A DNA stretch of 64,000 nt from an uncultured Candidatus Saccharibacteria bacterium (GTDB taxonomy: Bacteria; Patescibacteriota; Minisyncoccia; Phycocordibacterales; UBA9973). The position numbers were made by a program, and so were the translations under genes. The stretch is from assembly GCA_964384645.1 (NCBI GenBank), contig CAYLKL010000003.1, positions 9,101 to 73,100 of the forward strand. The letters run 5' to 3'. Position 1 is the stretch's first letter, and the number at the start of each line of letters is the position of its first letter. This document shows, one piece after another, positions 28,838-57,143 of the stretch. The notes under the pieces were generated by a model. The model was not told the DNA's origin. It did no database searches and saw nothing but the letters and a program-made list of their open reading frames with translations.

Positions 28838-31246
28838 TTAAACTACTGGCTCCTCTCCTGCATCAGGTGTGTCTGTTGGAGCGTCTCCCCCTTGATCAGA
28901 CCCATCATCTTGGGTATCTGGAGTCTGACCTCCATCACCCTCTGGTTGACCGCCATCATCAACAACGTCGCCACTATCTGTGCCTCCATTAGAATCCGAA
29001 TTAGTATCGACGTTACTTTGTTCTAAAATTTGCAAAAATTGATCTCGAGTGACACAAACATCTTCAACACAAAGTTCTTTGGTTGTTATTTTATCTGTAA
29101 TAATTTCTACAAAATTTACCACACCATTTATTGTCTTTTGAATTCCACTTTCTAAATATTCAACAACCGAAGATAAACTTAGACCACTATTTCCACCTCC
29201 AACATTCATTGAATCAACTTTTAGGTTCAAATCTTGGATAGATTTCACAATCAAAGGTGTAAGTTTTGAATAATCTACCATCCAATATTTATCCTCTTCT
29301 TCTGGAACCATAACAGCATCTGGGTACACTTCAAAAAGTTCCTGAGCAATCACACCGTGAGTTAATTTCTGACTAGGATCATTTTTCCAATTAAAATCTC
29401 GTATTTTTATGTCTAAAAGACTGTCCAAAGACAAATCTGTATCTTCAATGTTTTCCTTAAGCCTTTGGTCTGAAGTTGTATTGTAGGATGTTGCGTTTGA
29501 AGCAAAAGTAATTGAACCAATAGTTGGATTACCTAGTGGATGAAAATTTATAAGAGTAGTTGGAGTAACATCTGATGGATCATTTCCTGCCACAACTGTT
29601 ATACCGAGATTTCCTGCAACACCTGAGGTGTTTTCAAATTTCGCAACAGCAGTCACAGGAGCTCCTCCAACGCTTAAAATATTCCCATTATCTATACTTG
29701 TACCGATATTTACTTCGCCCATAACATTAGCAAGGTAAATCCGCCCAACAGATCCAGCGTTAGAACCTGTCCCGCCCGCACCAGGATTTACATATATATC
29801 ACCCCCGTCTCCAGCTGTGTCAGAGGCACCAGTGGAATTACCCCCATCGCCAGCCAAGATATTAACGTCTCCACCAAAACCACCCTGTGCAGCTATGAAA
29901 CCTTGTTCTTCTCCATTACCTCCATCTCCAGCAAATAAATTCAAATTACCGGCATAGCCACCATTTGCAGTATTACCTACCGCGGTTCCATTTCCACCGT
30001 CCCCAGTAGAAATTGTGACATCTTGTCCAGAAGTACCAGCGGTATCTGTGTTATCAGCTCCATTTCCAGCAGATGCAACGATTACACCATTAGAATCCAA
30101 ATAAATCTGCCCTTCTGCACTTGTAGAATTAATTGCTCTGAAAGCATATGTTCCAGCACCGTCACCTAAAACATCGAGCGTTGAATCTGGTGAACTTGTA
30201 CCGACTCCTAAAAAATTATTAGTACTATTGTAAAAAAGTTGTGGTTCACCTTTTGATAATTGTTTCTGTCCAGAATTAGAAGTCCAAAAAGCAACTTGTC
30301 CTTCGAGTTGTGTACCGACACCTCCTTGTGTCACATAAGTTGATGGAGTAATACTCGTGTAAGTAATATTACTAGTACCAAAAACTGGTGCGTCTGTTTC
30401 TTGAACCCATTGTTTACCTTTTATTGTCCAGTTTCCACCTTCTGTGGCAATCACTATTTGTGGCGACATTTCACTCGGCTCGTCTGCATCGGTTGTTCTT
30501 GTTAAAACATATGGTGAACCGCCACTACCTAAACTTGTCACGATATAAACACCATTTTGAGTTTGCGCAGATTGATTTTTAACCAAAAGCCTATCGCCCA
30601 CACCAAGACTAATCCCGTTTATATTAGGCAAGGCACCATTTGTCGATTTTGTTATTGTTGCTCCAACACCAGAGCTTCCATTATCATAAGTCACGCCAGA
30701 AAGAGCTGCCGCTGTCCCTGCTCTAACTATTGTTGGAGATACAACCAAGTCATCGAAGTTTGGTGTTGCTAACCATTGATTCCCTCTTATTGACTCAAAA
30801 ATAAATCCTTTTCTATTACTTGTTAGATAAACAGTTGTTGTTTCATTTATGTAATCTCCAGAATATGCGTCTACTGTGACAGTATTCGAAGCCGATGTTT
30901 TTAAAACAGTAATTTTCCTGCTTTCTGTTACCGAAGATATCTGAGGAAGCACAATATTTACATCACCGGCGGCTGTATCTGCATAAATAACCTGATCGGT
31001 AGATAAAATACTATAAGGACTATCTGAGTCGTCGACGGTTGTGAAATTAACAACAGCAGGAGCAACGGCAGTTGTACAGTTTGTATCACTCGGTCCACAA
31101 GTTGGATCGAGAGTTATACCCGGTAAATATTTTGTAGTTGGTGGAGCAGAAAAAACAGTCAGTGTAGTAGAAAATAAAATGAAAAACAAAAGTATACCTG
31201 CTACTTTTTTCCAAACACTATCTGTATTTATTAAAAACTTTATCAT
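28838..31246 (-). CDS. Secreted tail-fibre-like protein: Gly-rich beta-helix-like repeats plus a C-terminal intramolecular-chaperone autoprocessing (peptidase S74-like) domain and an acidic tail
   Basis: N-terminal signal anchor. Long GDGGNG / GxGG repeat region. ...TTSDQRLKENIEDTDLSLDSLL... matches the S-D-x-R-x-K-E-N-I start of phage tail-fibre/endosialidase chaperone domains (Ser ~residue 592, nt ~29471). C-terminal D/E/G/P-rich tail. Confidence 0.6.
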   Translation of the reverse strand: MIKFLINTDSVWKKVAGILLFFILFSTTLTVFSAPPTTKYLPGITLDPTCGPSDTNCTTAVAPAVVNFTTVDDSDSPYSILSTDQVIYADTAAGDVNIVLPQISSVTESRKITVLKTSASNTVTVDAYSGDYINETTTVYLTSNRKGFIFESIRGNQWLATPNFDDLVVSPTIVRAGTAAALSGVTYDNGSSGVGATITKSTNGALPNINGISLGVGDRLLVKNQSAQTQNGVYIVTSLGSGGSPYVLTRTTDADEPSEMSPQIVIATEGGNWTIKGKQWVQETDAPVFGTSNITYTSITPSTYVTQGGVGTQLEGQVAFWTSNSGQKQLSKGEPQLFYNSTNNFLGVGTSSPDSTLDVLGDGAGTYAFRAINSTSAEGQIYLDSNGVIVASAGNGADNTDTAGTSGQDVTISTGDGGNGTAVGNTANGGYAGNLNLFAGDGGNGEEQGFIAAQGGFGGDVNILAGDGGNSTGASDTAGDGGDIYVNPGAGGTGSNAGSVGRIYLANVMGEVNIGTSIDNGNILSVGGAPVTAVAKFENTSGVAGNLGITVVAGNDPSDVTPTTLINFHPLGNPTIGSITFASNATSYNTTSDQRLKENIEDTDLSLDSLLDIKIRDFNWKNDPSQKLTHGVIAQELFEVYPDAVMVPEEEDKYWMVDYSKLTPLIVKSIQDLNLKVDSMNVGGGNSGLSLSSVVEYLESGIQKTINGVVNFVEIITDKITTKELCVEDVCVTRDQFLQILEQSNVDTNSDSNGGTDSGDVVDDGGQPEGDGGQTPDTQDDGSDQGGDAPTDTPDAGEEPVV

Positions 31247-33345
31247 TATAAATTTATTTTGAACACTTCGTTTATGTAACCCTTGTTTGCATTTATAACG
31301 CCTGATTTGAATACTGTTTTATAAGATTCATCTGCCAATTTTTGGTCTATTTCAACATAATAATTTCCTTGTGGCATCAAACAATAATATTGTCCGTATT
31401 TATTTGCCACTTTTTTAGAAATCAAAGTCTGTGTATCAGAATTGTATACTTTTATTATAGCAAATGAGATAGGATTCCCTTCCACATCCAAAATTTTTCC
31501 AAAATTTTTCGTTTTTATACCTGTTTCTCTTAAAAATAGAAGAATTAGGTACAAGCAAAAGACTAAAATATTGTAAGTTGAAAAAGAGGAAAGAATTGCT
31601 AGACATGAAACTGTAAATCCAAAAGAAAAGAAAGAGTCAGAAAGCTTTGTCAAAAAAACATCTCTTTTTGAATAATACTTCATCAGTTTTTGATCTCGCT
31701 TTGCAAATTCATTCCAATCAAAACCAATTGGATCCATTGGGATATTCTTGATAATCACGTCACCTGCTCTACTTACCTCAAAAACATCTCCGAAATACAA
31801 ATCCAAATATATTTCATCACGAGTTTTTCCCACCAATTTAAGTGACGGGAAAGAATAGTGAGTCTTTTTGGGTAACAGTCTATATTTTCCAGGCTCAACT
31901 AAAAATCCATAACGCCCATCCATATCAGTTATTGAGGATTGAATTTCTTTTCCTTCCAAATCTTGAAGAGAAACCATAACAGGATCTAGTGGTTGTTTTG
32001 TAACTGCATCATAAACAGTCCCCCAAGGTCTTGCTCTTTTTTTAATTCCAAAAGCACTCATAAGGGCTGACCACAATCTATACGGCAACATCCAAATTTC
32101 AGTAAAAGAAAGTGGTGTACCGAAAAGTTTTGGAAGAACAGAGAAAATTGCACCGAACAAAATTCCAACAATTCCAATCATTTTAATTATAGGATTGCCA
32201 TAATCACTCGTGATTATTTCTTTCATTTCATCAAAAGCAGCCAAAAAAGTATCTATAGTGTAATCATAGGTATCGATTATTATGCACCAAATGACACCCA
32301 ATATACTTGTTTCGTATTCGCACCCTGTCAGTGGGTCGAAAACATCGTCATCGCTTGGATCTTCTTCGTCATCATCAGTGGGAGGGTTATCATCGTCGTC
32401 AATTGGGTCCAAATCATCTCCCGGGTCTTCTTCATCTACTGGAACATCCTCGTCTGTTGGATCTTCCTCTTCATCAACAGGATCATCATCGCCAGGAGAA
32501 GAACACAAAGAATTTTGTGGATTTAGTGTACAAAAATCACCACCGAAATTTAAAATTATAATCCCAGTATAAACGTCTCCTCTAGAATTATCTATTGCTC
32601 GATATTTAAGTTCATAGTCACCTAAACTAGGCGGTGTCCAAGGAATAGAAATAGAATTGGAATTATTTACCAAAGCAACTAGTACGTCATCTATATAAAT
32701 AAAAATCTTTAAAATTGAACCGTCCGGGTCAGTAGCGTTTGCCGAAAGAGTAACATTTTGTAAAGTTGCATAGTTGTTGACTGTGTTGGTCGGATTTAGA
32801 ACAGTAATAATTGGTAAAATATTGTCATTTCCACCCCCACCACCTCCGCCAGTAACAACTGTGTTTCTCCAACTTGTATTTACACAGGCATCAACAACAC
32901 CACAATCAAATTGTATCCAGCCATAATTTTGACTCCAAGCATAACCATCAAAATTTCCATTGCTATCTATGGTTACAGTTTGAGCAGATGAATTATCAAA
33001 CGGTCCGAAATTTACCCAGCCAGCGTTCTCTCCCCAGGCAAAACCAGAAAGAACACCGCTTGTGGTATTGCTCACCTTAAAATCACTACCTCCACAAGAA
33101 CTATTATTTGAACAATTTAAACTAATCCAACCAATATTTTCTCCCCAAATATAACCCGTGAGTTCGCTTGATGTTACCGTGACGTTTTTATCTGAGTTGG
33201 TCGTAAAATAACCAAAATTTATAATACTACTATCGCTCTCTAATTTTGCTTTGTAATTTACAGAGTCGATGTTTCCAACGGCAAAAATAAAACTAGAAGG
33301 AAATAAAAATAGTGTTAAAAATAAAATTTTTTTTAGAAATTTCAT
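31246..33345 (-). CDS. Large polytopic surface protein: signal peptide, three G[FY]AW..GW[IV].F repeats, Ig-like domain, D/E/P-rich acidic linker, TM helices and two carboxypeptidase-regulatory-like beta-sandwich domains
   Basis: Repeats TGYIWGENIGWISLNCS, SGFAWGENAGWVNFGP and DGYAWSQNYGWIQFDC. GGGGGGG run. ~45-aa acidic linker. Hydrophobic helices at ~residues 390-440 and 560-600. GTVYDAVTKQPLDPVMVSLQD...DGRYGF carboxypeptidase-regulatory-like motif. 1-nt overlap with the downstream gene and 4-nt overlap with the upstream M50 gene. Confidence 0.55.
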   Translation of the reverse strand: MKFLKKILFLTLFLFPSSFIFAVGNIDSVNYKAKLESDSSIINFGYFTTNSDKNVTVTSSELTGYIWGENIGWISLNCSNNSSCGGSDFKVSNTTSGVLSGFAWGENAGWVNFGPFDNSSAQTVTIDSNGNFDGYAWSQNYGWIQFDCGVVDACVNTSWRNTVVTGGGGGGGNDNILPIITVLNPTNTVNNYATLQNVTLSANATDPDGSILKIFIYIDDVLVALVNNSNSISIPWTPPSLGDYELKYRAIDNSRGDVYTGIIILNFGGDFCTLNPQNSLCSSPGDDDPVDEEEDPTDEDVPVDEEDPGDDLDPIDDDDNPPTDDDEEDPSDDDVFDPLTGCEYETSILGVIWCIIIDTYDYTIDTFLAAFDEMKEIITSDYGNPIIKMIGIVGILFGAIFSVLPKLFGTPLSFTEIWMLPYRLWSALMSAFGIKKRARPWGTVYDAVTKQPLDPVMVSLQDLEGKEIQSSITDMDGRYGFLVEPGKYRLLPKKTHYSFPSLKLVGKTRDEIYLDLYFGDVFEVSRAGDVIIKNIPMDPIGFDWNEFAKRDQKLMKYYSKRDVFLTKLSDSFFSFGFTVSCLAILSSFSTYNILVFCLYLILLFLRETGIKTKNFGKILDVEGNPISFAIIKVYNSDTQTLISKKVANKYGQYYCLMPQGNYYVEIDQKLADESYKTVFKSGVINANKGYINEVFKINL

Positions 33346-33965
33346 AAATTAAAACTTATGCCTGTCATTAAATTAAAAATCCAAAAAACTATAGGTGAAA
33401 TAACTGGCCAAATAAAGAAGACAACTATTATAAAAAGTGGCAATGTATAAGCGCTCGCAAGCTTTTCAAAACGACTAAATCTATCTGGTAACAATGAAAA
33501 AAGAATTCCTGATCCATCAAGCGGTGGAACTGGCACGGCATTAAATACTGCAAGTAAAATATTTAAAAATACAATTAAAGCTGATATTTCTATAATTGAC
33601 GATGGAAGAGCTATAAAAGCTGAAGACCTAATAACCATAGAAAAGAAAAACGCGATTAGAAGATTTACAACAATACCTGCTATTGAAACAAAGAACAGTG
33701 CTTTTTTTCTAATCTCTGGGGCGAAATTGGCAGAATTTACTGGAACAGGCTTTGCCCAACCAAACAAAAAGCCGGCATTTGTGACTACTAAAATTATAGG
33801 TAATAATATTGATCCAAAAAGATCTAAGTGTGGAATAGGATTTATTGTCAGCCGACCCGCCATTTTGGCAGTTTGATCACCAAATTTGAAAGCGACATAG
33901 CCGTGAGCGACTTCGTGCGCCACAACTGAAATAATAAGGATTAAAATGTAAAAAATAGAATCCAT
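33342..33965 (-). CDS. Site-2 protease family (peptidase M50) intramembrane Zn metalloprotease
   Basis: HEVAHG zinc motif in TM1 and the NAVPVPPLDGS (LDG) motif. Polytopic, 207 aa. Confidence 0.75.
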   Translation of the reverse strand: MDSIFYILILIISVVAHEVAHGYVAFKFGDQTAKMAGRLTINPIPHLDLFGSILLPIILVVTNAGFLFGWAKPVPVNSANFAPEIRKKALFFVSIAGIVVNLLIAFFFSMVIRSSAFIALPSSIIEISALIVFLNILLAVFNAVPVPPLDGSGILFSLLPDRFSRFEKLASAYTLPLFIIVVFFIWPVISPIVFWIFNLMTGISFNL

Positions 33966-34011
33966 ACTTGTCTAATTAATACCCTTATGATAGCATACCC
34001 AAACAACACAT

Positions 34012-34254: not shown

Positions 34255-34280
34255 AAATCCCGTCCAAGACGGGATTTTTA
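34255..34280 (+). terminator. Intrinsic terminator after rpmB
   Basis: Stem tcccgtc-caa-gacggga followed by TTTTT. Confidence 0.75.
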
Positions 34281-34310
34281 AATAAGATTCTATTTTCTAT
34301 ATTCTAATAT

Positions 34311-35168
34311 CTAATTATCTAAATAAATTTTTTCCCCGTCGCTTATAAAAGTGATTATTCCAAAATCATAAGTCGCCAGACTTTTAATATTTAAAGCCTC
34401 AACCCTATCCATAACGTCTTTGTGCGGATGTCCGTATGTATTATTAAGTCCGGCTGAAATAATAACGACTTCGGGATCGACTGCTTTCAAAAATTCCATC
34501 GAAGAAGAAGTTTTTGAACCATGATGTCCTAATTTCAAAACATCCGATTCTATATTTTTAAAATTTTTTATTATTCTTTCTTCGTCTTCAATATAAGCAT
34601 CCCCCGTTAGCATGAATTCTGAATTTCCATACACCAACCGTCCGCAAATAGAAGCATCATTTGCTTCAACAAAAGAGACATCTGAATCGGGTGATAAAAT
34701 TTCAAAGCGCACATTTTTATCTTTGTCTAAATAAATATTTGTCCCCGCTCTAGCTAAAAAAGTTTTTATTCCTTTATTTTGAGCAATCTTTAAAATTTGA
34801 TTATAATTAGTGTTGTCGGCAATATTTCCAGAAATAAATAAAGAGCCAATATCATATTCTTGAATAATAGAAACCAAGCCACCAGAATGATCTTCGTCTG
34901 GATGTGTGACAACCAACACATCAATTCTATTATCAAAGCTATCCATCACCGAGTCTAATTTCTGTAACAATAAATCCCCTGACCTACCCCCGTCTATCAA
35001 CATATCAGTCTTCCCAAATGCCTTTATATAAATAGCGTCACCTTGACCAATATCTAAAAAAGAAACCTGTAGAGGGTATTCTTTTTTAAATTCCCTAATA
35101 GAAAGAAACCCTAAAATTACCAAAAGTAGAAATATTACAAAAATCTTGTTTTTCTTAATTCTTTCCAT
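34311..35168 (-). CDS. Stand-alone metallo-beta-lactamase domain protein of the ComEC C-terminal-domain type
   Basis: VLVVTHPDEDHSGGL (HxDxDH) plus downstream GHHGS and DAS motifs. N-terminal TM anchor. 285 aa. Confidence 0.65.
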   Translation of the reverse strand: MERIKKNKIFVIFLLLVILGFLSIREFKKEYPLQVSFLDIGQGDAIYIKAFGKTDMLIDGGRSGDLLLQKLDSVMDSFDNRIDVLVVTHPDEDHSGGLVSIIQEYDIGSLFISGNIADNTNYNQILKIAQNKGIKTFLARAGTNIYLDKDKNVRFEILSPDSDVSFVEANDASICGRLVYGNSEFMLTGDAYIEDEERIIKNFKNIESDVLKLGHHGSKTSSSMEFLKAVDPEVVIISAGLNNTYGHPHKDVMDRVEALNIKSLATYDFGIITFISDGEKIYLDN

Positions 35169-35822: not shown

Positions 35823-37526
35823 TTATTCTTTTATAAATCGCTTGGTCTTGTGACCAACAACTACAAAATAAAAACCAGGTTTAATTTTTGAAACATCAAT
35901 CACCTCTTCGATAGCACCGGCAGATTGTTCGATAACAACTTTACCTAATGGATCGATAACAGTAATGGTATCTCCTACTTTGATCTTTTCGATAACCAAA
36001 TGGTCGGTTGTCGGATTTGGGTAGATTTTTATATCACCCATATCATCCTGAAACGCTTCTGTACGGACTTCGGCATTATCAGTAACTTCTTCCTGTTTTT
36101 CATCCGCAGAAAGACGACAGCTTGCTCCAAGAGTAACATTGACCACAGTGGAAGTTCTAAGAACTCCATACTTGTTAGTAACGATAACCTTGTATTTACC
36201 GACAGTAGTAACAATTAAACTATTCCCGGTTGCTCCGGCAATAACGTTCCCATACTTCTTCCAAACATAAGTAGCGTTTGAATCATATGGAACAGAAAGA
36301 GTGACATCTTGTCCGGGACAGATAGTTGTACTACCAAGTATTGATACTGCAGCACTTGGCGCAGGATATGTGACACGAGTTAAAATCATGTCGTAAGTTG
36401 AACTCGGCATATATGCTCGTGAACGCATACCTACAAACACCCAACCTATACCTGCATTCCTTTGAGCAAGACCTGTAAAGACATAAGCTCCCGTACTATT
36501 AGTTGTTTCTTTCCTGACCCAAATTCTATTAAAATTTGGGGAGTACTCAGCACCATAAGCACCGGTTGTTGTATTGAAATTTCCAAACATTCCCGCAACA
36601 ACAAAACCAGCATAAGAGTCTTCCATCTGAACTATCGATCCAGCTTCTGTTGTCTGAAATATTCCTGATACATTACCAAGCAAATCAACACTGACAAAAG
36701 AAATAAGGCTAGTCGCAGCATCTTCTTTGAGTCCGACAAAAAGAGAATTTTCTCTTTCGCCAAAACACATTTCAGTTGCAGTGTAACCCAGTGGCAAAGC
36801 AGATGACCAAAGTGTACCCCCGGAAGCATCCAAACAATAAACCGTTTGAATAACATTCCAAGAAGGATCATATCCTCTTACAAGAACAAAAGAATTTCCA
36901 GCGATCGTTGGAGCAACCGAAGTTGCAGCAAAACCATTAAAAAATCTTGTCCAAGTAGGAACACCTAATAAATCAAGCTTTGTAACGAAAGCGTTTTGAC
37001 CCTGAGCAGGTATTCTGTCTGAGCTAAAACAAGATCCGGATAAAAATAAATTATTACCCAAAATCCTCAAGCTTATAGGATTATCGTGACCACTACCGGA
37101 GACATTTGTAAGAATCGTAGACCATAAAACATTTGCAGATGCATCTTTTTTATACAAAGAGATGTCTCCGTTATTTTGGTCTTTCGAATAAACAAAAAAT
37201 ACACCAGATTGATCAGAGACCGTCGCCATATCAGACGATACCGCAGACTGTGACACAAACGATGAATCAAACCCACGAATTGCACCGTTATTGTAAGTAG
37301 TACTCGAGACAACACCAATACTTCCAGTTCCTTTCGGAACTCTGAGCCCACCAACGTATGAGTTTGCACCCATTGTTGATATGACTGGATTAATGGTCGA
37401 TTCGGATGTATCTACTACAGCTTTTTTGAATGTAACGGCTGGAGATTGAGCATTTACTATTTCGGGGCAATATATACCCTGGATAAGTATAATCAATAAG
37501 ATCATAAGATATTTGATTGTTTTCAT
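35823..37526 (-). CDS. Secreted beta-rich protein with an Ig-like domain and a C-terminal Por_Secre_tail (T9SS-type sorting) domain
   Basis: Signal peptide. C-terminal DIKIYPNPTTDHLVIEKIKVGDTITVIDPLGKVVIEQSAGAIEEVIDVSKIKPGFYFVVVGHKTKRFIKE fits the T9SS CTD consensus (YPNP...I.D..G..V...........ID.S.L..G.Y.V.V....). Confidence 0.55.
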   Translation of the reverse strand: MKTIKYLMILLIILIQGIYCPEIVNAQSPAVTFKKAVVDTSESTINPVISTMGANSYVGGLRVPKGTGSIGVVSSTTYNNGAIRGFDSSFVSQSAVSSDMATVSDQSGVFFVYSKDQNNGDISLYKKDASANVLWSTILTNVSGSGHDNPISLRILGNNLFLSGSCFSSDRIPAQGQNAFVTKLDLLGVPTWTRFFNGFAATSVAPTIAGNSFVLVRGYDPSWNVIQTVYCLDASGGTLWSSALPLGYTATEMCFGERENSLFVGLKEDAATSLISFVSVDLLGNVSGIFQTTEAGSIVQMEDSYAGFVVAGMFGNFNTTTGAYGAEYSPNFNRIWVRKETTNSTGAYVFTGLAQRNAGIGWVFVGMRSRAYMPSSTYDMILTRVTYPAPSAAVSILGSTTICPGQDVTLSVPYDSNATYVWKKYGNVIAGATGNSLIVTTVGKYKVIVTNKYGVLRTSTVVNVTLGASCRLSADEKQEEVTDNAEVRTEAFQDDMGDIKIYPNPTTDHLVIEKIKVGDTITVIDPLGKVVIEQSAGAIEEVIDVSKIKPGFYFVVVGHKTKRFIKE

Positions 37527-42800: not shown

Positions 42801-43362
42801 CGTTGTAATATGCTGGAGATTTTGGCCCAACTCCATCTAAGGCAATTTGGAAATCGTCTGAAACTGAATTTGTACCAGTAGTTCCAGTTGTTGAAAATCT
42901 AATATAAGGAACAGAAGTACTTGCTACAGGACTCTCAAATAAGATAGAAAAAGAATTATCAGTAGTTGTCATAAAATTTGAAACCAATATGTCGTCAGGT
43001 TTCCAAATAAATTCAACAGCAAAAGAAGAAGAAGCTGAAGTTGGTGTTTTCCCAATTGTTTGATAACAACCAGAACTGCTTGTATAGTTCAAATACTTCC
43101 CAACTGGACCATTTGATTGTTGAACAAATGGACAACTCGTCCCATTTGTAAATGTCGAAGATCCGATGGTCGCAGAGTTCCAAGGATTTCCTTCAAATTG
43201 CCAGTACGAATAAGGCTGAATCGGAGTTGTTACAGCGTTATACGTTGCAGCCAACTGTCCCCCAAAAAATCTAGATAAATTAAATGGAGACAAAAAATCT
43301 ATAACTAATAAAATTACTAATAATAATACAACTGATAAAATTAAACTCTTTTTCTTTTTCAT
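39823..43362 (-). CDS. Giant surface protein 1 (1179 aa): signal anchor, LamG/concanavalin-A-like domain, large conserved central domain, C-terminal Ig-like domains
   Basis: N-terminal TM. DGNWHHMVF LamG-type motif. C-terminal ...VTLSANATDASGIASVEFKVDGVSVGIDTTSPYSVSWDT Ig-like repeats. Paralog of the downstream gene. Confidence 0.6.
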   Translation of the reverse strand: MKKKKSLILSVVLLLVILLVIDFLSPFNLSRFFGGQLAATYNAVTTPIQPYSYWQFEGNPWNSATIGSSTFTNGTSCPFVQQSNGPVGKYLNYTSSSGCYQTIGKTPTSASSSFAVEFIWKPDDILVSNFMTTTDNSFSILFESPVASTSVPYIRFSTTGTTGTNSVSDDFQIALDGVGPKSPAYYNDGNWHHMVFKYSNGVKEIWVDGVLPTGFSKTVANTNKIKSSNGDIKFFGNSTAERRYVGAIDQFALWSNDLPGNLIYQHYLDSITNGQSYSWVTNITNTPNAQAVSSSFDTMDYLPGAQLGTSPYTTYSTTPPTVLTQLQSVPLPRYKTGHTLLRNFNWNDLDYLAHFTPTDFTYTHSAAQVQAGVSIAGEMAKKWNYYLDLAPSLTSSNLDTGVSGTPGLISYSNSNPTLPTQLVILRAQLSGASTCGGGSNMPCLRYQGFGNQYYLQNSSGQFIDINGNVTTSKVWRPLSSQFSQYTPDGNAMKSMVNSVVNQLTKPAPKIDLISENGEILVKYETNALNSDPAVSSAISSSGMDAQSYVAKTVSDMANQTYRDIILSIPGLAGSKYLEYAVDGYEEATRFKWSEARKMQSPINGQYYATPDFYPRWPSNWRSKISAWNGMYFIQKVMGRQQATGDKFFGAYMSPGWDLKAEQNISPGQWLGLSKNVNNMGSEFFHTGYFNRVGTSEDGWPAQKIWQNMIPSYSQAVFSYVDSFYKNSNVMTGDLPLDYASSSTTPGYAFKSGRMDAFTTVRKDNSVNKYLIATNLNQYTNMDGAVPEIAPVNINLSGEVLKFNSRRQGSTYIYDKTGASPVFYQLDAWHESSHPWYWSKDFSFEAEVYDTGSASRTTTTPAGTPAGDYTNFTTYINPSTGSTTYKFEPRDATGSIPKTYYLWYFAKSATGTSTATVKVDSGTAQTISSNSTTFGWCNKNQAGTPIVFSSVTPNTAHTFTFTGLSANFQLDKFILTENSNLNLGSCGPETTPPTVSISAPIDGSSVAVGTTVTLSANATDASGIASVEFKVDGVSVGIDTTSPYSVSWDTTGASGGNHTITAIAIDAVGNTSTSTAVNVSVLAGTYISWVFPTNGLTVQSGQVYTMKVSVGGPITKVKYFRYNNGLTRECTSSSAPNFNCTWRPLGLITKDIQYQAKGYNAQGAEVASTPIITITRVSVF
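40407..40951. repeat. Copy A of an intragenic duplicated block (identical to 45627-46171)
   Basis: 40432-40951 is 100% identical to 45652-46171 at a constant offset of 5220. Near-identity extends back to ~40261 / 45481. Confidence 0.9.
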
Positions 43363-46400: not shown

Positions 46401-48618
46401 AAACCAAACGTGTTGTATCTCCACGCATCATTTTTCCATTTTTAAGAATATCTTCGTAATAACTTGTTACACCTTGTGCATATGAAGGAGTTGATGCTTG
46501 CCATACATAGTTTTCAGGATAAAGGTTGTCTGCAATGTTTGGTTCTATATTGAAAACACCTGGATAGAAAAATTCAGCACCTGTTGCAGCTAAAACTTTT
46601 GTAAAACCAAGCATTTGAGCTGGTCGAACATTGTTTCTTTCAACTCTATCCCAACCAGCAGATATAAATGGAGAATATAGATTATCTCCAGCTGCTAATT
46701 CCCCGTTTCTACTATTTACAACCCACTGCCATCCGTGCCAAGCACTACTCCAATATTTCCAGTTCCATGGATATCGAATATAAAAATCAGGAGTAGAGTA
46801 ATACATACCATTTATTGGATCATTTACTTTTCTTGCTTCTTCCCATTTAAATTCATATATATGTTCACCTTCAATAGCGTACTCTGTGAAAGTTGAATTT
46901 GAAACAGCTTGAATACTTTTTATTTTATCAACATAAGCTCTTTCGTTTGTATAAAATTGTCTAGCTACATAAGTATACGCATCAAGTCCAGATGCATTTT
47001 TTGCAGCCAAAACAGCTGGGTCATTATTAACTATATTTGTTGTACTTTCTGCTGTATACGGAGGGAAAACTTCACCGTTATCATTAATGATATCGATCGC
47101 ACGTGTTGGATATTGAGCAACTCTATTTGGTATAGAATTTAAAACAGTTTGAATGTGCGACTTTGCAGCTTCTCCGTCTGGAGCGTAACTTGAAAGATAA
47201 GTTGAGACAGGCCTCCATCTTTTATCGGTTGTTACATTTCCATTAGGGTCCAAAAATTGCCCTGATGAATTTTGTAAATAATGAGTACTTGGTAAATTTT
47301 GAGAAGAGATACAAGATCTTGTACAAGCTGAAGTATAAAGTTGAGCTCTAAAAGATGTTGCGGCTATAGGAATAAAATTTGCACCAGGTGTAATGTATTG
47401 CTGTTCATTTGCCAAAGATTGATCTGCCGCAGAAAAACCATTTGAACTTCCTGTGTTATTCGTAACTTGAATATGGTAGTTCCATTTTGTAGCAAGTTGT
47501 CTGTTTATGTCCTTTGACTTTGCGTGGTTTGTTGTAGTGTTCCCAACTGAAGTACCTGAAATACTTGATGAAGCTAAGTTTGAAAGATAATCATATGCCA
47601 ACCAGTTACCGACATTCCTTATTAAGGTATTTGAAGATTTATAACGAGGCAAAGGATAAGTTTCAAGCTGATCAATAACAGAAACATTTACTCCTGGTGT
47701 TTGTCCTGATGAAGAAGAAAGATTTGTTCCTGCCATAAAATCAAGAGGGTTGTAAACTCCAGCAACTGAATCAGCTGATGGAACATTTGTGATTGCTGTT
47801 GTAGTTGAATAGCTAAGGCCTGCACTTGCATTATTGTGGTGTTCTAAAATTAAGTTTGGTGGCAAAGATTTGTCATACAGCGCAATTTGATCTAGCGAAC
47901 AATTACATTGAGTGTACTCTGCTGAATTAAGGCTCGAGAATTTTACAGCACCTGTTGTAGATACTGCTGTGTTAAACGAATACCCAGCTGGAAGTTGTCC
48001 GTCAATCCAAAATTGTACTTTTTGTGAAGAAGAAGTTGGGTCATATTGAATAACAAAATGGTGCCAATTTCCATCAGCAATATATGCTAAAGATTTTCTA
48101 CCAGCCTCATCTAGGTTGATATAAGAATCAACGCCATTAAGTACAAGTTTCCACCTAGCCATACTACCGTTTGGATTTCCTCCAACTGGTGTCTGGAACT
48201 CAAGCTTAAAATTAGAACCAAATGAGAAAATTGTTCCAGCTTCAAAAGTTTTTGAAGGCTTAAACAAAAATTCAACAGCCCAACCACTCGCAGAAGGAGT
48301 TATGTTGCCTGCTGTATTACCAGACCCAGATAGATCTATGTAATTTCCAACCTTTCCGCCTGTTTTTGGTGTCCAAGTAGAAGTTTCTGTTCCTCCGAAT
48401 TGCTGAGATCCAATAGTTGGAGTTTTTTGACCAGCAGTAGTTGTGTCAGAGAACTGCCAATAACTTACTGGAGTGATTGGACTTGTGACAGCTGTATAAG
48501 TGGCAGCCTTTTGGCTATTGCTTAATATTTGCGGATCAATAGGAGAAATTACCTTTGAAAACAAAAAAACCGCAATCACAAAGAATGATAATAATAATGC
48601 CTTATTTATTTTTTTCAT
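43441..48618 (-). CDS. Giant surface protein 2 (1725 aa): signal anchor, LamG-like domain, conserved central domain, multiple Ig-like domains, FN3 domain, CARDB domain
   Basis: DGNWHHFVI. FN3-like LSWGGSTDSGSGLEGYYIYRDG. CARDB-like DVLVTDIVWSPVSPSVGANVSFTATVKNQG...EVNEANN. At least 6 Ig-like repeats (TAPTVSVTAPT...). Shares a ~200-aa identical segment with gene 1. Confidence 0.6.
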   Translation of the reverse strand: MKKINKALLLSFFVIAVFLFSKVISPIDPQILSNSQKAATYTAVTSPITPVSYWQFSDTTTAGQKTPTIGSQQFGGTETSTWTPKTGGKVGNYIDLSGSGNTAGNITPSASGWAVEFLFKPSKTFEAGTIFSFGSNFKLEFQTPVGGNPNGSMARWKLVLNGVDSYINLDEAGRKSLAYIADGNWHHFVIQYDPTSSSQKVQFWIDGQLPAGYSFNTAVSTTGAVKFSSLNSAEYTQCNCSLDQIALYDKSLPPNLILEHHNNASAGLSYSTTTAITNVPSADSVAGVYNPLDFMAGTNLSSSSGQTPGVNVSVIDQLETYPLPRYKSSNTLIRNVGNWLAYDYLSNLASSSISGTSVGNTTTNHAKSKDINRQLATKWNYHIQVTNNTGSSNGFSAADQSLANEQQYITPGANFIPIAATSFRAQLYTSACTRSCISSQNLPSTHYLQNSSGQFLDPNGNVTTDKRWRPVSTYLSSYAPDGEAAKSHIQTVLNSIPNRVAQYPTRAIDIINDNGEVFPPYTAESTTNIVNNDPAVLAAKNASGLDAYTYVARQFYTNERAYVDKIKSIQAVSNSTFTEYAIEGEHIYEFKWEEARKVNDPINGMYYSTPDFYIRYPWNWKYWSSAWHGWQWVVNSRNGELAAGDNLYSPFISAGWDRVERNNVRPAQMLGFTKVLAATGAEFFYPGVFNIEPNIADNLYPENYVWQASTPSYAQGVTSYYEDILKNGKMMRGDTTRLVYPPDSNPGFRFYTGNPGQLVVARKQNSANRFVITGMENPWSNYQGNAAEESLADISFGGDTYPATTVTPTENLKFKVRRQGSTYIYDKTGASPVFYQLDAWHESSHPWYWSKDFSFEAEVYDTGSASRTTTTPAGTPAGDYTNFTTYINPSTGSTTYKFEPRDATGSIPKTYYLWYFAKSATGTSTATVKVDSGTAQTISSNSTTFGWCNKNQAGTPIVFSSVTPNTAHTFTFTGLSANFQLDKFILTENANLNLGSCGGTTPTDTIAPTVSVTAPTTGATISTGPATLSANATDASGIASVEFKVDGVSVGIDTTLPYSVSWSLTGVTNGSHQITATATDTVGNTANSSVSITVSLPDTVAPTTPTTLSVTRQSNSAVLSWGGSTDSGSGLEGYYIYRDGSTTAINTSAVTNLGYTDTPSANASHTYIVKSKDSSGNFSSASNQVSINIDTAGPSTTVTSPVSGATLSGTVTMTASATDTTGINHIEFYRGTVLICTATATGQTSGTFSCSWNTTGVANGSYQITAKAYDKVTVPGSNSTTTTAFGVTVNNVTTPPADTTAPTVSVTAPTPSATVSGLVTVSANASDNVGVTTVQFFTDSSTSPFATDTSAPYSVTLDSSTLSNGTHTVKAKAFDAAGNNATSANVSVTVSNATGQPDVLVTDIVWSPVSPSVGANVSFTATVKNQGTVGTPEGMVVGVMFMMDGVALGCSDAQTTSIGAGKTVNLGMGTGSAYCSNQSADTGIFTAWNATGGSHNITAVVDDINRFAEVNEANNTTSETITVGTDTSAPTVSITSPANGVVVTGGSNTTITANASDASGIQNVKIYIDGNQYGSTLTTSPYSISWNTTGFTSGSHTITAIATDNAGNSSTSSAVSVSISTTVADTTAPTVSITSPANNANVSNTSPVTFIATVTDNVSVKQVKFFLGATSTTPKCTLTSATTPPSSYSCSFTVPSVLWGFGTSTINVQAVDVAGNTTTKNIKVK
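45627..46171. repeat. Copy B of the intragenic duplicated block (identical to 40407-40951)
   Basis: See copy A. Antisense ORFs 40247..40594 and 45458..45814 in the ORF track are near-identical artefacts of this duplication. Confidence 0.9.
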
Positions 48619-50860: not shown

Positions 50861-50878
50861 TTAAGTCACAGCAGAGCT

Positions 50879-51084: not shown

Positions 51085-51115
51085 GTCTCATTTACGGACA
51101 CTTATATAGACGAAT

Positions 51116-52979: not shown

Positions 52980-53107
52980 TACCTAATTTTACCTTAACTT
53001 TCAAATTCTTTCCATTTAGTTAACATTGCATATTTTAAGTATTGCTAAAAAAATAATTTGTTGAGCTAAGCTCCTTAATAAAAGACTGTAAACTGTTTTA
53101 ATGGGAA

Positions 53108-53136
53108 TAAAAAAATCCGACAAAGTCGGATTTTTA
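53108..53136 (-). terminator. Intrinsic terminator after the Gly-rich secreted-protein gene
   Basis: Minus-strand stem atccgac-ttt-gtcggat followed by TTTTTT. Confidence 0.7.
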
Positions 53137-53149
53137 AAATTATTATTTA

Positions 53150-54634
53150 TTATGGTGTTTCTTGCCAGCTAAATATAACGATACCGTTTCCCCCTTTACA
53201 TCCACTTCCTAGATTTGGAAGAAATGGATTAACTGCACCTGCACCACCACCACCCGAACTAATTCCTCCGCTTGTACAGCTTATCGAGCCCACACCTCCT
53301 TTTCCGGCATCCCTACTACCATCGTCGTTAAAGCTAGAAGCATTACCCCCAAGACCACCATTACCACTAGTACTACCAGAATGGACAACAGATCCATAAC
53401 TTAGCAGATCACCTGTTGATGTGTCTATCAAATAAGGCCACGCTGTGTACTTACCACTAGCTCCAGCTACTCCATTTTGAACATTTGCCCCTACTGTAAA
53501 AGACCCTCCTGTTCCACCAGCACCAGTTCCCGTTGAAGAAGATGGTGTATGTGGATTTACTATTATTTTTCCACCTAGTCCACCTTTTCCACCTTCAGCT
53601 TGAGCTACAACTGTAGATTGAGGTAAGGGACCTATAACCTTAGACTCTCCTCCGTTTTGTCCATCAGAAGCACCGTAACCAGATGGTGGACTATTAAAGT
53701 TTAAAATACTTGATACCCAACCACTAGGTGAGCCATAGAAAGAACCACTAACACCGTATCCTTTTTTAGTACCAGCACTACCGCCTGCACCAACTTGAAC
53801 ACTGTATTGCAAAGAAAGCTGTGTACCGATGCTATTAAATTCAGAGTAAGCTCCTCCACCACCACCTCCACCACCAGAGTTTATTTGACATTTTGCAGCT
53901 TGAGGTCCGGCATCATTAATAGTTCCAGGAGCACCCGATGTTCCAGAACAACCAGTAGAAAGATTATTTCCTTGACTAAATTGATAAGCGAGACCTCCCC
54001 CACCTCCTCCACCAGCACCGTTTATACTTACCCTAAGACTTCCCGCTACATATTTTACTGGTGTAATAAATATATTATTACTACAAGAACCTAACGGAGA
54101 ACTACAATCACCACTTGAGATTTGTGATCCAGAAGAATTAATAGAGTAAGTTTGATATTTAGTTGTGTTAACTACATTGCTTTCACTATTATCAGAAGAA
54201 CTTGTACAGCCCGGATCATTTGGATAGTCGACTAGTCCGTCACTATCATTATCCACGCCATCACTACACTCTGAAGTAGAAGTTGTTACCCCACAAAGAT
54301 AAAGTGTTCCGTTTGACTGAGCACAAACATGAGTATCGCCTGAATTTGTGTGTTGCAAGGTTGCAACCTTAAGTGTTCCAGTTCCAGGATCAGTAGTGTA
54401 ATCACCAACTGTTGTATCTCCAACCAAAAGTGATCCTCCAAAAACAGCAAGAGAATTTAACCCAAGTCCAGAATTTTTTATTTGGTTTGTTGTTCCAACA
54501 TTTACTGGACCCTGAGCATTATTACCAGGAGGCGGACCAGCTGGCGCAACCCAACTACCGGCATAAGAAATACCCGCTGACAATACTAGACCTATAACTA
54601 TTATTTTTAATCCATTTATAACTTGCTGTTTCAT
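53150..54634 (-). CDS. Secreted Gly-rich protein with a Cys-bracketed Asp-rich (TSP3/dockerin-like Ca-binding-type) motif
   Basis: Signal peptide. CSDGVDNDSDGLVDYPNDPGC. Two GGGGGGG runs and long GxGG low-complexity tracts. 494 aa. Confidence 0.5.
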   Translation of the reverse strand: MKQQVINGLKIIVIGLVLSAGISYAGSWVAPAGPPPGNNAQGPVNVGTTNQIKNSGLGLNSLAVFGGSLLVGDTTVGDYTTDPGTGTLKVATLQHTNSGDTHVCAQSNGTLYLCGVTTSTSECSDGVDNDSDGLVDYPNDPGCTSSSDNSESNVVNTTKYQTYSINSSGSQISSGDCSSPLGSCSNNIFITPVKYVAGSLRVSINGAGGGGGGGLAYQFSQGNNLSTGCSGTSGAPGTINDAGPQAAKCQINSGGGGGGGGAYSEFNSIGTQLSLQYSVQVGAGGSAGTKKGYGVSGSFYGSPSGWVSSILNFNSPPSGYGASDGQNGGESKVIGPLPQSTVVAQAEGGKGGLGGKIIVNPHTPSSSTGTGAGGTGGSFTVGANVQNGVAGASGKYTAWPYLIDTSTGDLLSYGSVVHSGSTSGNGGLGGNASSFNDDGSRDAGKGGVGSISCTSGGISSGGGGAGAVNPFLPNLGSGCKGGNGIVIFSWQETP

Positions 54635-54689
54635 ATGTTTATAATTTTACCACGCTAATAATAATTTTTATTAATAATTGTTTATAATT

Positions 54690-57143
54690 TTATCTTTCTT
54701 CAATAATTGGTTTTATATTTCCGTTTCCACCGCCACCTCCTGGAGGCACAACACTACAATCTGTTGCAACTACAACTGAAACTTGAGAACTTTCAGAATC
54801 TCCAGAACCATCAACACAAGATATTGAATAATTTAATGTTCCACCATCTGCAACTCCACTTGGAATAAACGGCCCAAAATCAGTTGTACCGCTACTGTTC
54901 AATTGATTAAACCAAAACATTGAGCCAAAATTATTCCAGCCAACTGGTGCAGGTACACCTCCGCCAGGAACATAAGAGTATCCAGTTGTACAAGAAGCGA
55001 AAGGATTTGATTGAGCGCTCGCTGAGCTTACGGTCAAAGTTAGAGAATCACCTGGTTCAATACACGCAGTATTTGTATTTAAGTCCAAATAAACACTTGA
55101 ATTAGCCCTAGGCACAATTGTTACAGAGTCAGTTACAATTGGAATATGTGTATTATTTAATTTATCTTCGCAAGTTATATTGTAATAAACAATATCTCCA
55201 ACATTTGCTCCCCCAATATCTATATTCAAGAAGCTTCCATCTGGATCGTGCGTAACGCTGTTAATTGCATTCCAAGCGGTCGTTGGTGATGATGTAATGT
55301 CACAAGTTCCAGAATTAAAATCTCCTGCTGTTTTCTTTATATCTATTTTTACTGTTCCACCTACCTCAACAGTATTCAAGTTTCCATCATTGTCATTTTC
55401 GTCACTTGCATTAAGTGACAACTGAAGACCATTTAGCCCTGCGATAGAAACTTGCGTTGATGCTGTATAAGTTTGTAGTGTTACCTTATCTCTACAAGTT
55501 AGCGTATAGGTTGTTGTTGCCGGAATAACGGACACTCCATTTTCAATTGCTGTAAATGAGTTCCCCGCAAAAAGATCAGTTTTTGGACCAAACCAAGCAC
55601 CATTTGGAGACGAAACACCTCCCATTCCAACAGCAGAACACTCTAAATCTTTATTCAAAACAGATTCCCATCTCAAAGAAATTTTTTCACCGAGATTCAC
55701 CTGACTAATTGCCTGACTACCTAAAACATAAGGATCTTTGTGCGCAGTAAGAACTAGTGAAACATTTTCATTAACAACCACAATGTCTTGACCACAAACA
55801 AGACTAGGAGATGTACCACAAGAAGCACCTGTAGTACCCGCACCTCGTGTACAAGTTAATTTAAATATAGTTGCATCACCAACAGCACTACCTGGCACAA
55901 GAACATCGTTTATAACCCCAGAAGTTCCAAGGAAAATATATGGTAAAGGTTGCGCAAGTGGGGTTGTCCATTTTGGATTTGTGTAAACAACACCATTAAA
56001 AGTAGTCATACCGACGCAAGTATTTGGCACAATAGCGTTTGTTGTCCAAGTTATATCAGTAAGGAAAAAACCATTCGCATCTGGAACATTTTTAGGATTT
56101 GCACTAACGACAACTGAAGCAACTTTTCCACCTGGAAGTATTGTAACTAAAATATTTCTAACCATCGGACCGATAGTTCCAGTTCCATTTTCGTCACCCT
56201 GACATGTAATTGTAAAAGATTTAGTTATAGCGGCAGATGTAGTATTCAAAAAAGTAAGCGCAGGCCACGCATGACCTCCGTTAGTAGAACTTCTGCCTGG
56301 ATTTCCAGACAACCAGTCTCCACTTGCAGTACAACTATTTGGAACAACATCTAAAACATTCCAACTCAGCACTACGTTGTTATTTGAAGAAGTAGAAGAA
56401 GTAGAGACTGATGGATTCTGTTGATTTGCAATAACATTACCCGAACTTGTTGTTGCAGAAAAAGTTAAAAGTGATTTTCCGCCGGCATTTCCATCTATGA
56501 ACACTTGACTCATATCAATCCAGCCGACATTTAATGGTCCACCCCAAGCAAAACCCGAAAGAAATCTTTGACCTTGGGCATTTGGCTGACCAACACTTAC
56601 AGAATAAGAGCCGGACTCGCTTCCGTTAAACATTGCATCTCCTGCAAAACTAATCCATCCATCCCAACCACCATTTGGATTATCTGTCATTGAACTACAG
56701 TTCCCTGGAACGTTTGATCCTAGAGTATTTAGTGTTGCACTACAAAATCTTGCCCAGCCAACAATATTATTACCAGCTAGCCTTGCGTTTACGGGAGTTG
56801 TCCCTGATCCAACAGGAAAACCTGAAAGACCTCCAAACTTAACCCATCCGTAACTTTTTGTTCCCGTGATAGAGTCTACTGGGTTCGCCCATGCATATCC
56901 AGATAAATTACCAACCGAATCAATAGTAACTTGATAACTTGCAGGGTCGGTCAAGCTATCCTTAAAAGAAATCCACCCCGCGCCTCCAGGAATACCACTA
57001 GGCTGACCAATCCCCGCCCAAGCCCAGCCGTCCATTTCTTGAAATGAAGTCTGTGCTTTTAAAATAGACGTATCACCAAAAACAAAAAAACTTATCATTA
57101 GGAGTCCTAGTATTGCGAAGAAAAATTTTCTAGTGTTTTTCAT
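54690..57143 (-). CDS. Large secreted protein (817 aa) with N-terminal G[FYW]AW..GW[IV].F repeats and C-terminal Ig-like / beta-sandwich domains
   Basis: Signal peptide. Repeats DGWAWAGIGQ...AGWISFKD, SGYAWANPVD...YGWVKFGG, GWARF, GWDGWISFAG and SGFAWGGPLNVGWIDMS. The same repeat type occurs in the 31246..33345 protein. Confidence 0.55.
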   Translation of the reverse strand: MKNTRKFFFAILGLLMISFFVFGDTSILKAQTSFQEMDGWAWAGIGQPSGIPGGAGWISFKDSLTDPASYQVTIDSVGNLSGYAWANPVDSITGTKSYGWVKFGGLSGFPVGSGTTPVNARLAGNNIVGWARFCSATLNTLGSNVPGNCSSMTDNPNGGWDGWISFAGDAMFNGSESGSYSVSVGQPNAQGQRFLSGFAWGGPLNVGWIDMSQVFIDGNAGGKSLLTFSATTSSGNVIANQQNPSVSTSSTSSNNNVVLSWNVLDVVPNSCTASGDWLSGNPGRSSTNGGHAWPALTFLNTTSAAITKSFTITCQGDENGTGTIGPMVRNILVTILPGGKVASVVVSANPKNVPDANGFFLTDITWTTNAIVPNTCVGMTTFNGVVYTNPKWTTPLAQPLPYIFLGTSGVINDVLVPGSAVGDATIFKLTCTRGAGTTGASCGTSPSLVCGQDIVVVNENVSLVLTAHKDPYVLGSQAISQVNLGEKISLRWESVLNKDLECSAVGMGGVSSPNGAWFGPKTDLFAGNSFTAIENGVSVIPATTTYTLTCRDKVTLQTYTASTQVSIAGLNGLQLSLNASDENDNDGNLNTVEVGGTVKIDIKKTAGDFNSGTCDITSSPTTAWNAINSVTHDPDGSFLNIDIGGANVGDIVYYNITCEDKLNNTHIPIVTDSVTIVPRANSSVYLDLNTNTACIEPGDSLTLTVSSASAQSNPFASCTTGYSYVPGGGVPAPVGWNNFGSMFWFNQLNSSGTTDFGPFIPSGVADGGTLNYSISCVDGSGDSESSQVSVVVATDCSVVPPGGGGGNGNIKPIIEER

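Follow-up and report, generated by a model that had tools for sequence, protein, structure and literature searches.

Two large proteins encoded in a 64-kb window (contig CAYLKL010000003.1; "the window" is the whole 64,000-nucleotide stretch analyzed here) share an N-terminal domain that belongs to an uncatalogued family, one whose fold class and architectural role are of kinds already known. The domain is built from four Trp-rich beta-hairpins and is predicted with good confidence, from structure models, to be a closed eight-stranded up-and-down beta-barrel with pseudo-fourfold symmetry; this barrel has no detectable homolog of known structure. Our preferred reading, to which we give a probability of roughly 0.55, is that the four-hairpin barrel is a surface-displayed recognition or adhesion head that binds an external polymer multivalently.

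A shared four-hairpin domain and its predicted fold

The open reading frames (ORFs) of protein 1 (31246..33345) and protein 2 (54690..57143) are present as a first-pass annotation of the window described them, and the motif that it reported does lie in the secreted N-terminal parts of these two surface proteins. A regular expression for this motif, G[FYW][AIVGS]W..GW[IVLA].[FLMY], was run on all six frames of the window and gave six matches, every one of them within protein 1 (GYIWGENIGWISL, GFAWGENAGWVNF, and GYAWSQNYGWIQF) or protein 2 (GWAWAG..GWISF, GYAWAN..GWVKF, and GFAWGGPLNVGWIDM). The N-terminal regions of the two proteins match each other by BLASTP at E = 1e-7. Hidden Markov models (HMMs) made from relatives only, with the window rows taken out, were then compared with 268 six-frame segments: the protein-1-type model recovered protein 1 (E = 2.9e-43, amino acids [aa] 25-161) and protein 2 (E = 3.6e-6), the protein-2-type model recovered protein 2 (E = 6.9e-53) and protein 1 (E = 6.6e-25), and neither model matched any of the other 266 segments. 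The Trp content is 5.0 to 5.5% in the barrel domains versus 1.1 to 1.7% elsewhere in the same two proteins.

Motifs that are short and rich in Gly and Trp could resemble each other through composition or chance, a reading whose probability we put close to nil. It is contradicted by the BLASTP match, by cross-profile E values obtained in a search in which nothing else among the 268 segments scored, and by conservation of the whole domain in thousands of homologs. The profile HMM search had been named beforehand as the test of this point, and the similarity aligns across profiles and so is not compositional. The shared motif reported earlier is real and homologous in both proteins, far beyond chance.

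Across 330 units from 120 relatives, the core of the 13-residue unit reads G-[Y/F/W]-[A/I/V]-W-[G/A/S]-E-N-[I/V]-G-W-[I/V]-x-[F/L]; each of G, W, N, G, and W is found in 329 or more of the units, and E in 310. The longer consensus is L-x-G-[YFW]-A-W-[GAS]-E-N-[IV]-G-W-[IV]-x-[FL], with a unit spacing of 29 to 43 residues that peaks at 29 to 30, 35 to 38, and 43 residues and is set by the presence of a Cys-x6-Cys loop between hairpins. Counts of hairpins per cluster show a sharp peak at four, with 218 of 367 clusters, and a cluster of eight, where it occurs, is a tandem pair. The profile is matched whole, over positions 2 to 128. A fixed copy number argues for a closed fold rather than an open solenoid, and the module is a single domain, predicted to be closed, with exactly four hairpins; it is no array of short repeats in variable number. 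The earlier description of 3 to 5 loose copies has to be replaced on these grounds, since each protein has four hairpins. For protein 1, the three canonical units listed before were correct, but a degenerate first hairpin (GNIDSVNYKAKLESDSSIINF, aa 24-44), whose canonical form in relatives is NIDxxxKYAWGENIGWINF, had been overlooked. For protein 2, the list had missed hairpin 1 (GWAWAG..GWISF, aa 37-60), and the supposed copy "GWDGWISFAG" amounts to no more than strand 2 of hairpin 3, whose first strand is VGWARF. Units 1, 2, and 4 of protein 2 have enlarged turns, and unit 3 is split by a Cys-Cys loop between its strands. In the alignment of this divergent subtype (A2), the columns of GWARAC and WDGWIS show little or no variation, and the two motifs are the hallmark of the Patescibacteria subtype.

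Structure prediction of the repeat region, proposed earlier as a check, gave confident models of both copies. For protein 1 (aa 22-172, alignment of 82 sequences), the AlphaFold2 (AF2) model has a mean predicted local distance difference test score (pLDDT) of 89.6, a predicted template modeling score (pTM) of 0.83, and eight main strands of 3 to 12 residues arranged as four hairpins. For protein 2 (aa 30-225, separate alignment of 48 sequences), the values are a pLDDT of 80.8 and a pTM of 0.80. In the protein 1 model, each hairpin turns through a loop of three residues, E-N-[I/V], so that the two Trp residues are direct cross-strand neighbors. One face of the hairpin carries the Trp pair, a Tyr, and a variable polar residue, and the opposite face carries G, A, G on one strand and G, I, F on the other. 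From side-chain volumes, we infer that the core is formed by the small and aliphatic face, with the Trp pairs on the outside immediately beneath the four E-N turns. A Foldseek search of the PDB with the predicted fold gave a best E value of 0.2, the top match being a designed barrel.

An uncatalogued family and its domain context

No match was found in Pfam-A (2025) over the N-terminal regions of either window protein, even at E ≤ 1, and none in NCBIfam 20 or PHROGs over either barrel. No Pfam family covers the barrel in ten strong multidomain relatives, no NCBIfam family covers it in nine canonical relatives, and no Pfam family is common to more than 8 of the 96 strongest representatives. The earlier statement that the repeat is not a named family is thus borne out for the window proteins and their relatives in Pfam, NCBIfam, PHROGs, and PDB sequences, and a search of the literature on the motif strings and on Patescibacteria surface proteins returned no description of a four-hairpin domain.

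The family is large. Searched with a profile of 30 trimmed domains, a set of 1.84 billion cluster representatives yielded 9,312 at E ≤ 1e-3, 7,162 at E ≤ 1e-10, and 979 at E ≤ 1e-30, usually with the whole domain as one matching stretch near residues 27 to 155. When one-genome-per-species contigs were scanned with the profile of alignment A5, at least 571 stretches were confirmed in species-representative genomes. The best 80 of these, from which taxa were read, are mostly from Patescibacteria (Paceibacterota, Nomurabacteria, Moranbacteria, Yanofskybacteria, Falkowbacteria, Peribacter, Minisyncoccia, and metagenome-assembled genomes [MAGs] labeled Saccharibacteria); the other taxa are Planctomycetota (Anaerohalosphaeraceae, Phycisphaerae, and Pirellulales), Desulfobacterales, Nitrospirae, and some MAGs labeled Gammaproteobacteria. 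A family of this size and spread is not the lineage-specific module that had been suggested. A scan of viral contigs found no relative of the barrel, evidence against a phage-borne domain.

In 74 of 76 ORFs, the barrel follows the signal peptide directly and precedes all other domains. In protein 1, it is followed by a Gly run, a Big_7 domain, an acidic linker, and then alternating transmembrane (TM) segments and CarboxypepD_reg stretches (PF13620, E = 4.4e-12, two stretches). This C-terminal half is kept at 42 to 56% identity in 36 of 80 genome loci, in Patescibacteria, and the same 36 loci define the TM plus CarboxypepD_reg anchor type. Other members end in PG_binding_1 (four proteins), SLH (two), dockerin, a single C-terminal TM helix with a basic tail, or PEP-CTERM. 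Many members are short (~210 to 300 aa) and consist of head and anchor only, among them Planctomycetota proteins of ~210 aa in which a dockerin-like module follows the barrel. In the longer members, stalk-type partners predominate; these include TSP3_bac, Big_13, PKD, Big_7, cadherin-like, and Calx-beta domains (among 96 strong members) and MopE-type motifs. The combination of one conserved head with many alternative anchors suggests that the barrel is the displayed functional end and not the anchor. Peptidoglycan binding, which the first-pass annotation had raised as a role for the module, is not favored, given fusions of the barrel to PG_binding_1, SLH, and four other anchor types.

In protein 2, the signal peptide and the barrel are followed by ~600 aa of Cys-paired beta-rich modules and the tail KPIIEER, and the protein has no Pfam, NCBIfam, or PHROG match. 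The tail pattern P-x-[FYVA]-x-E-[IVF]-COOH (Pro at -6, Glu at -2) is found in 52 of 67 unique protein-2-type ORFs versus 2 of 491 other ORFs from the same loci (L087 to L166), and it is not followed by a TM helix. Surface proteins of Patescibacteria may use this tail as a C-terminal signal for sorting or docking.

Gene neighborhood and feature coordinates

The window has a G+C content of 34 to 39% and encodes ribosomal proteins, EF-G, ComEC, RecJ, PGK/TIM, and a proton pyrophosphatase along with many secreted proteins; the nearest relatives of proteins 1 and 2 come from Patescibacteria genomes assembled from metagenomes, which marks the source of the window as a Patescibacteria-like (CPR) bacterium. 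Coordinates of the barrel proteins, their parts, and their neighbors are collected in Table 1.

Table 1. Positions of the two barrel proteins, their domains, and neighboring genes in the window, with sites in the loci of relatives (prefix L)
Feature	Coordinates	Strand	Basis or description
Protein 1, 699 aa	31246..33345	minus	ORF, translation, Pfam, hydropathy
Protein 1 putative signal peptide, aa 1-22, MKFLKKILFLTLFLFPSSFIFA	33280..33345	minus	From sequence: basic n-region, hydrophobic core, small residues at -3/-1
Protein 1 barrel domain, aa 23-161	32863..33279	minus	
Protein 1 hairpin 1, degenerate, GNIDSVNYKAKLESDSSIINF, aa 24-44	33214..33276	minus	Aligns with canonical hairpin of relatives; model strands 3-14 and 20-22
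Protein 1 hairpin 2, LTGYIWGENIGWISL, aa 62-76	33118..33162	minus	Regular expression, hydropathy, model
Protein 1 hairpin 3, LSGFAWGENAGWVNF, aa 99-113	33007..33051	minus	Regular expression, hydropathy, model
Protein 1 hairpin 4, FDGYAWSQNYGWIQF, aa 132-146	32908..32952	minus	Regular expression, hydropathy, model
Protein 1 Big_7 Ig-like domain, stalk element, aa 178-245	32611..32814	minus	PF17957, E = 3e-6, 28.2 bits versus cutoff of 24.1
Protein 1 acidic Asp/Glu/Pro linker, aa 285-338	32332..32493	minus	From sequence
Protein 1 membrane-anchoring half	31249..32190	minus	TM aa 386-409 and 572-605 (hydropathy); CarboxypepD_reg aa 442-491 and ~615-668
Protein 2, 817 aa	54690..57143	minus	ORF, translation
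Protein 2 putative signal peptide, aa 1-30	57054..57143	minus	From sequence
Protein 2 barrel domain, aa 36-217	56493..57038	minus	
Protein 2 hairpin 1, MDGWAWAGIGQPSGIPGGAGWISF, aa 37-60, enlarged turn	56964..57035	minus	Regular expression, subtype alignment, model
Protein 2 hairpin 2, LSGYAWANPVDSITGTKSYGWVKF, aa 80-103, enlarged turn	56835..56906	minus	Regular expression, subtype alignment, model
Protein 2 hairpin 3, IVGWARFC...Cys loop...GGWDGWISF, aa 127-166	56646..56765	minus	Subtype alignment A2, model strands
Protein 2 hairpin 4, LSGFAWGGPLNVGWIDM, aa 195-211	56511..56561	minus	Regular expression, subtype alignment, model
Protein 2 C-terminal tail KPIIEER, pattern P-x-x-x-E-x-COOH	54693..54713	minus	Alignment
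Tail-fiber-like protein, 802 aa, Peptidase_S74 intramolecular chaperone	28838..31246	minus	PF13884, E = 1.2e-13; PHROG tail fiber families, best E = 5e-27
Small M50 (site-2-protease-like) peptidase	33342..33965	minus	PF02163, E = 6e-13
Gly-rich secreted protein, 494 aa, directly downstream of protein 2	53150..54634	minus	Translation
Small single-TM (type II) protein, 99 aa from ATG 57444 (probable start)	57145..57471	minus	Basic N terminus, TM 57322..57378
Small TM family sites in relatives	L003:3705-4019, L004:5075-5359, L087:4524-4814, L088:4454-4807, L089:4601-4885, L133:4439-4819, L139:1408-1725		
Planctomycetota beta-helix pairings	L001:6836-7885, L002:6925-7938, L065, L071, L076, L077		

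Protein 1 is flanked by two overlapping genes. The S74 gene overlaps its stop codon by 1 nucleotide (nt), and of the 36 protein-1-type loci, 12 have an S74 protein no more than 6 kb from the barrel gene, as does L003. In the window, the S74 gene, whose product is a cellular protein, is bounded by protein 1 on one side and the ribosomal S12/S7/EF-G operon on the other; no further phage genes are nearby. The M50 gene overlaps the start of protein 1 by 4 nt, and M50 is directly upstream of the protein 1 ortholog in 11 of the 32 loci with enough flank. The order of a metallo-beta-lactamase (MBL)-fold protein (34311..35168), M50, and protein 1 is kept in 9 to 11 Patescibacteria loci, a possible sign that the multi-TM protein 1 is processed within the membrane.

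Upstream of protein 2, the 1-nt gap to the ORF of the small TM protein is as first reported. This protein has three short E-x-K-L-D-x-L-N-x-L-type repeats, and the members of its family, which is named in no library, are ~100 aa long with a basic N terminus, one TM helix, and two to four E-E-K-x-V-L-K-E-L-E-x-L-K-type repeats. The small TM protein and the rest of protein 2 gave no tblastn match in 166 loci, so the small TM protein was traced by its architecture and motif. It is directly upstream of the barrel gene in the three closest relatives (L087, L088, and L089) and in L133 and L139, and one or two genes upstream in L003, L004, and L148. The co-occurrence, named earlier as a point to check, holds for the three closest relatives and a few others but extends to only 10 of 42 loci, a modest excess over a loose control (57 of 351) and a weak association. 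The family may act as a membrane docking partner.

Downstream of protein 2, the 494-aa protein opens with a motif (SWVAPAGPPPGNNAQGPVNVG) that is common to Patescibacteria fiber proteins and, after a signal or TM segment, has the form [AS]-W-x-x-P...P-x-G-N...P-[VL]-N-V-G...Q-x-K. The same motif opens the S74 fiber protein of L003 (4053-5981) and a 202-aa protein of L004 (5363-5971), both beside barrel genes, and it looks like a shared module for N-terminal attachment of Patescibacteria fiber proteins. Segments of the 494-aa protein were found by tblastn at 27 to 47% identity in 18 of 80 protein-2-type loci, where the matching part was not recorded and may not be the motif. At aa 115-155, the 494-aa protein has an acidic double-disulfide MopE-like motif, C-x-D-G-x-D-N-D-x-D-G-x-x-D...C, and MopE-like motifs (Cu-binding_MopE, acid_disulf_rpt) stand directly after the barrel in many relatives, among them L016, L021, L037, L049, L059, L061, and L064. 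Six Planctomycetota loci pair the ~210-aa barrel plus dockerin-like protein with a right-handed beta-helix protein (PF13229) that is secreted. The neighbors that recur are thus fiber- or spike-like surface proteins, a suggestive pattern but not a decisive one.

The window also encodes other secreted proteins of note. Two adjacent giant proteins that lie between the two barrel proteins (39823..43362, 1,179 aa, and 43441..48618, 1,725 aa) have similar N termini (..AATYNAVT and ..AATYTAVT) and multiple Big_7, Big_13, and CARDB domains. A 567-aa protein (35823..37526) has a match to Por_Secre_tail, the C-terminal sorting domain of type IX secretion (E = 2.4e-10, 41 bits versus a cutoff of 27), which is unexpected in a Patescibacteria-like genome.

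Role of the barrel and comparison with known systems

The way in which such a head might work can be sketched as follows. After a Sec-type signal peptide, each protein carries one copy of this uncurated extracellular domain, the four Trp-rich hairpins of which would close into the eight-stranded up-and-down fold around a narrow core packed by the small and aliphatic face. Each hairpin would present its cross-strand Trp-Trp pair and Tyr outside, just beneath the E-N-x turn, so that one barrel pole would bear four equivalent aromatic and polar patches. External patches of this kind under four E-N turns would amount to four equivalent sites and hence to a multivalent head, binding an external polymer that is probably a glycan or a cell envelope component; if the ligand is a glycan, it may be a foreign one. 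The barrel would be the distal end, with stalk modules and then an anchor behind it: Big_7, the acidic linker, and TM segments in protein 1, and in protein 2 ~600 aa of Ig-like modules with the conserved P-x-x-x-E-x tail. The orientation of the residues, the binding function, and the class of ligand are the parts of this scheme that we infer.

Several points weigh against the four-hairpin barrel as a binding head. The E-N turn is lost in protein 2, which has enlarged loops in its place, and its subtype has S-x-N or S-D-V there, so that the most conserved residues (Gly and Trp) could be purely structural. The side of the hairpins that faces outward is deduced rather than observed in the models, and a PDB sequence profile search found no solved structure for any member (nothing at E ≤ 1). 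Protein 2 has no recognized anchor, only its conserved tail, and the neighborhood links are partial for both the S74 protein (12 of 36 loci) and the small TM protein (10 of 42).

Some of these points speak for the foremost of the alternatives, which we nevertheless consider unlikely: that the barrel serves in assembly or folding and has no external ligand, nucleating or capping the stalk or docking the protein to S74 fibers, beta-helix proteins, or the small TM protein. The almost invariable position of the barrel as the very first domain after the signal peptide would suit this role, as would the dispensable E-N turn of protein 2, the recurrence of fiber or spike genes as neighbors, and the fact that conservation is strongest in residues of hairpin and barrel stability, namely, the Gly kinks and cross-strand Trp pairs. 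Such neighbors are found in only a minority of loci, however, and the stalks downstream of the barrel are very different from one another and are missing altogether from the ~210-aa proteins, which makes a general stalk-folding role unlikely. An improbable alternative is that of a small-molecule carrier on the model of hemophilin, YceI, avidin, or the lipocalins, holding heme, a lipid, an isoprenoid, or a cofactor inside the barrel and scavenging it for an auxotrophic cell. Patescibacteria do rely on external metabolites, but membrane and designed barrels score equally well against the predicted fold, the inferred inward positions (G, A, I, and F) would fill the narrow core and leave no cavity, and there are no conserved His or Tyr ligands for heme. 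The family is, moreover, equally common in free-living Planctomycetota and Desulfobacterales.

More improbable again is that the hairpins are divergent ChW-type or other GW-type repeats that tether proteins to the cell's own wall. ChW (Clostridial hydrophobic W, PF07538) is a repeat that occurs in surface proteins and endolysins of Firmicutes and Actinobacteria and is presumed to bind the cell wall. Its ligand is unknown (PMC5817068). Five of 82 relatives match PF07538 at E ≤ 0.01 (best 8.1e-7), the relative P0004 scores 24.1 bits versus a cutoff of 22, and both families conserve an [EQ]-N-[IV]-G-W motif. Neither window protein matches PF07538 even at E ≤ 1, however, and coverage is limited to profile positions 3 to 23 of 35 in the three strongest listed relatives and 3 to 16 in the fourth, whereas a synthetic ChW consensus, used as a control of the model, scores 222.9 bits over positions 1 to 35. 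An hhalign comparison of alignment A3 with an alignment of 40 real ChW proteins (A4) gave a probability of 0.65% (E = 0.088), and when unit was compared with unit, 7 columns aligned (eNiGWI against QniGWq) with a probability of 22.8%. Neither the window proteins nor the family consensus has the second half of the ChW consensus (G-T-T-G..R-L-E-A-I), and some barrel proteins have dedicated wall anchors of their own (PG_binding_1 and SLH). The turn motif is thus all that the two families have in common, and with the negative profile-profile test, we reject ChW membership and, with it, the analogy to Trp-rich wall-binding repeats drawn in the first-pass annotation. Assembly or docking ranks first among the alternatives, followed by the carrier, the divergent ChW anchor, and, last, chance similarity.

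The preferred reading of a multivalent recognition or adhesion head can be extended, tentatively and with a good deal of doubt, to a lectin-like fold family not described before, whose four near-identical, Trp-zipper-like hairpins apply aromatic and acidic patches to envelope glycans. In Patescibacteria, the barrel would then be a host-recognition head that takes part with S74 proteins in episymbiotic attachment, and the C-terminal tail and the small TM protein would provide a new, noncovalent form of retention of protein-2-type proteins on the cell.

Whatever its ligand, a domain with ~9,300 cluster representatives in at least four phyla has had no name, model, or structure in the libraries searched. 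In many surface proteins of Patescibacteria it is the outermost part, and such proteins are the likeliest mediators of contact with host or substrate in organisms that are almost entirely uncultured. Defined boundaries make thousands of "hypothetical" proteins annotatable, and the compact domain of ~130 residues could be used for expression, structure determination, and glycan- or host-binding screens. The domain is also an unusually clean natural case of a beta-barrel made by fourfold amplification of one hairpin, which bears on the evolution and design of barrels. The finding overturns no expectation; it is a good lead and merits a family entry.

Among named repeats, ChW resembles the barrel units in being extracellular, in its conserved G-W dipeptide and local [EQ]-N-[IV]-G-W turn, and in the few relatives that pass the Pfam threshold. 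ChW units are ~45 to 50 aa long and often occur in triplets, whereas four units of 29 to 43 aa close into one domain here, and the taxa and partner domains of ChW are unlike those of the barrel family. The choline-binding repeats of CW_binding_1 (PF01473) are likewise short, aromatic-rich beta-hairpin units of extracellular proteins, but they form open solenoids of variable copy number, in contrast to a predicted closed domain with a fixed number of four; neither CW_binding_1 nor other named Trp or GW repeats matched the N-terminal regions in Pfam at E ≤ 1.

In predicted topology and size, the domain resembles other eight-stranded barrels: hemophilin, HpuA, and TbpB; OmpA, NspA, and OmpW; avidin and streptavidin; YceI; and the designed BB1/b10. 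None of them has a sequence relationship to the domain (no PDB profile match at E ≤ 1; best Foldseek E = 0.2) or an obvious fourfold sequence repeat. Glycine kinks are used in designed barrels, and the Gly residues beside the barrel strands here resemble them. OmpA-like membrane barrels have long amphipathic strands and a lipid-facing surface, whereas the strands here are short, the Trp-pair face also has Glu and a variable polar position, and the domain has soluble stalks and wall anchors among its fusion partners; these differences lead us to reject a membrane barrel of this type. In the general view, Patescibacteria lack an outer membrane. Slam-dependent lipoprotein barrels (TbpB, HpuA, and fHbp) have a lipobox and a handle domain and belong to an outer membrane with a Slam translocon, and with neither lipobox nor handle in the domain and no sequence homology, a hemophilin-like or Slam-dependent barrel is rejected as well.

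At the level of whole proteins, the comparison is with fibrillar adhesins, which PMC9210967 describes as having a layout of a stalk plus an adhesive head. Many barrel proteins differ from these in being short, with a putative head and an anchor alone. The likeness lies in the signal peptide, the terminal nonstalk domain, the stalk of Ig, PKD, cadherin, or TSP3 modules, and the interchangeable envelope anchors: protein 1 has the signal peptide, Big_7, and TM segments, and its relatives supply the Ig, PKD, TSP3, and cadherin stalks and the PG_binding_1, SLH, dockerin, PEP-CTERM, and TM anchors.

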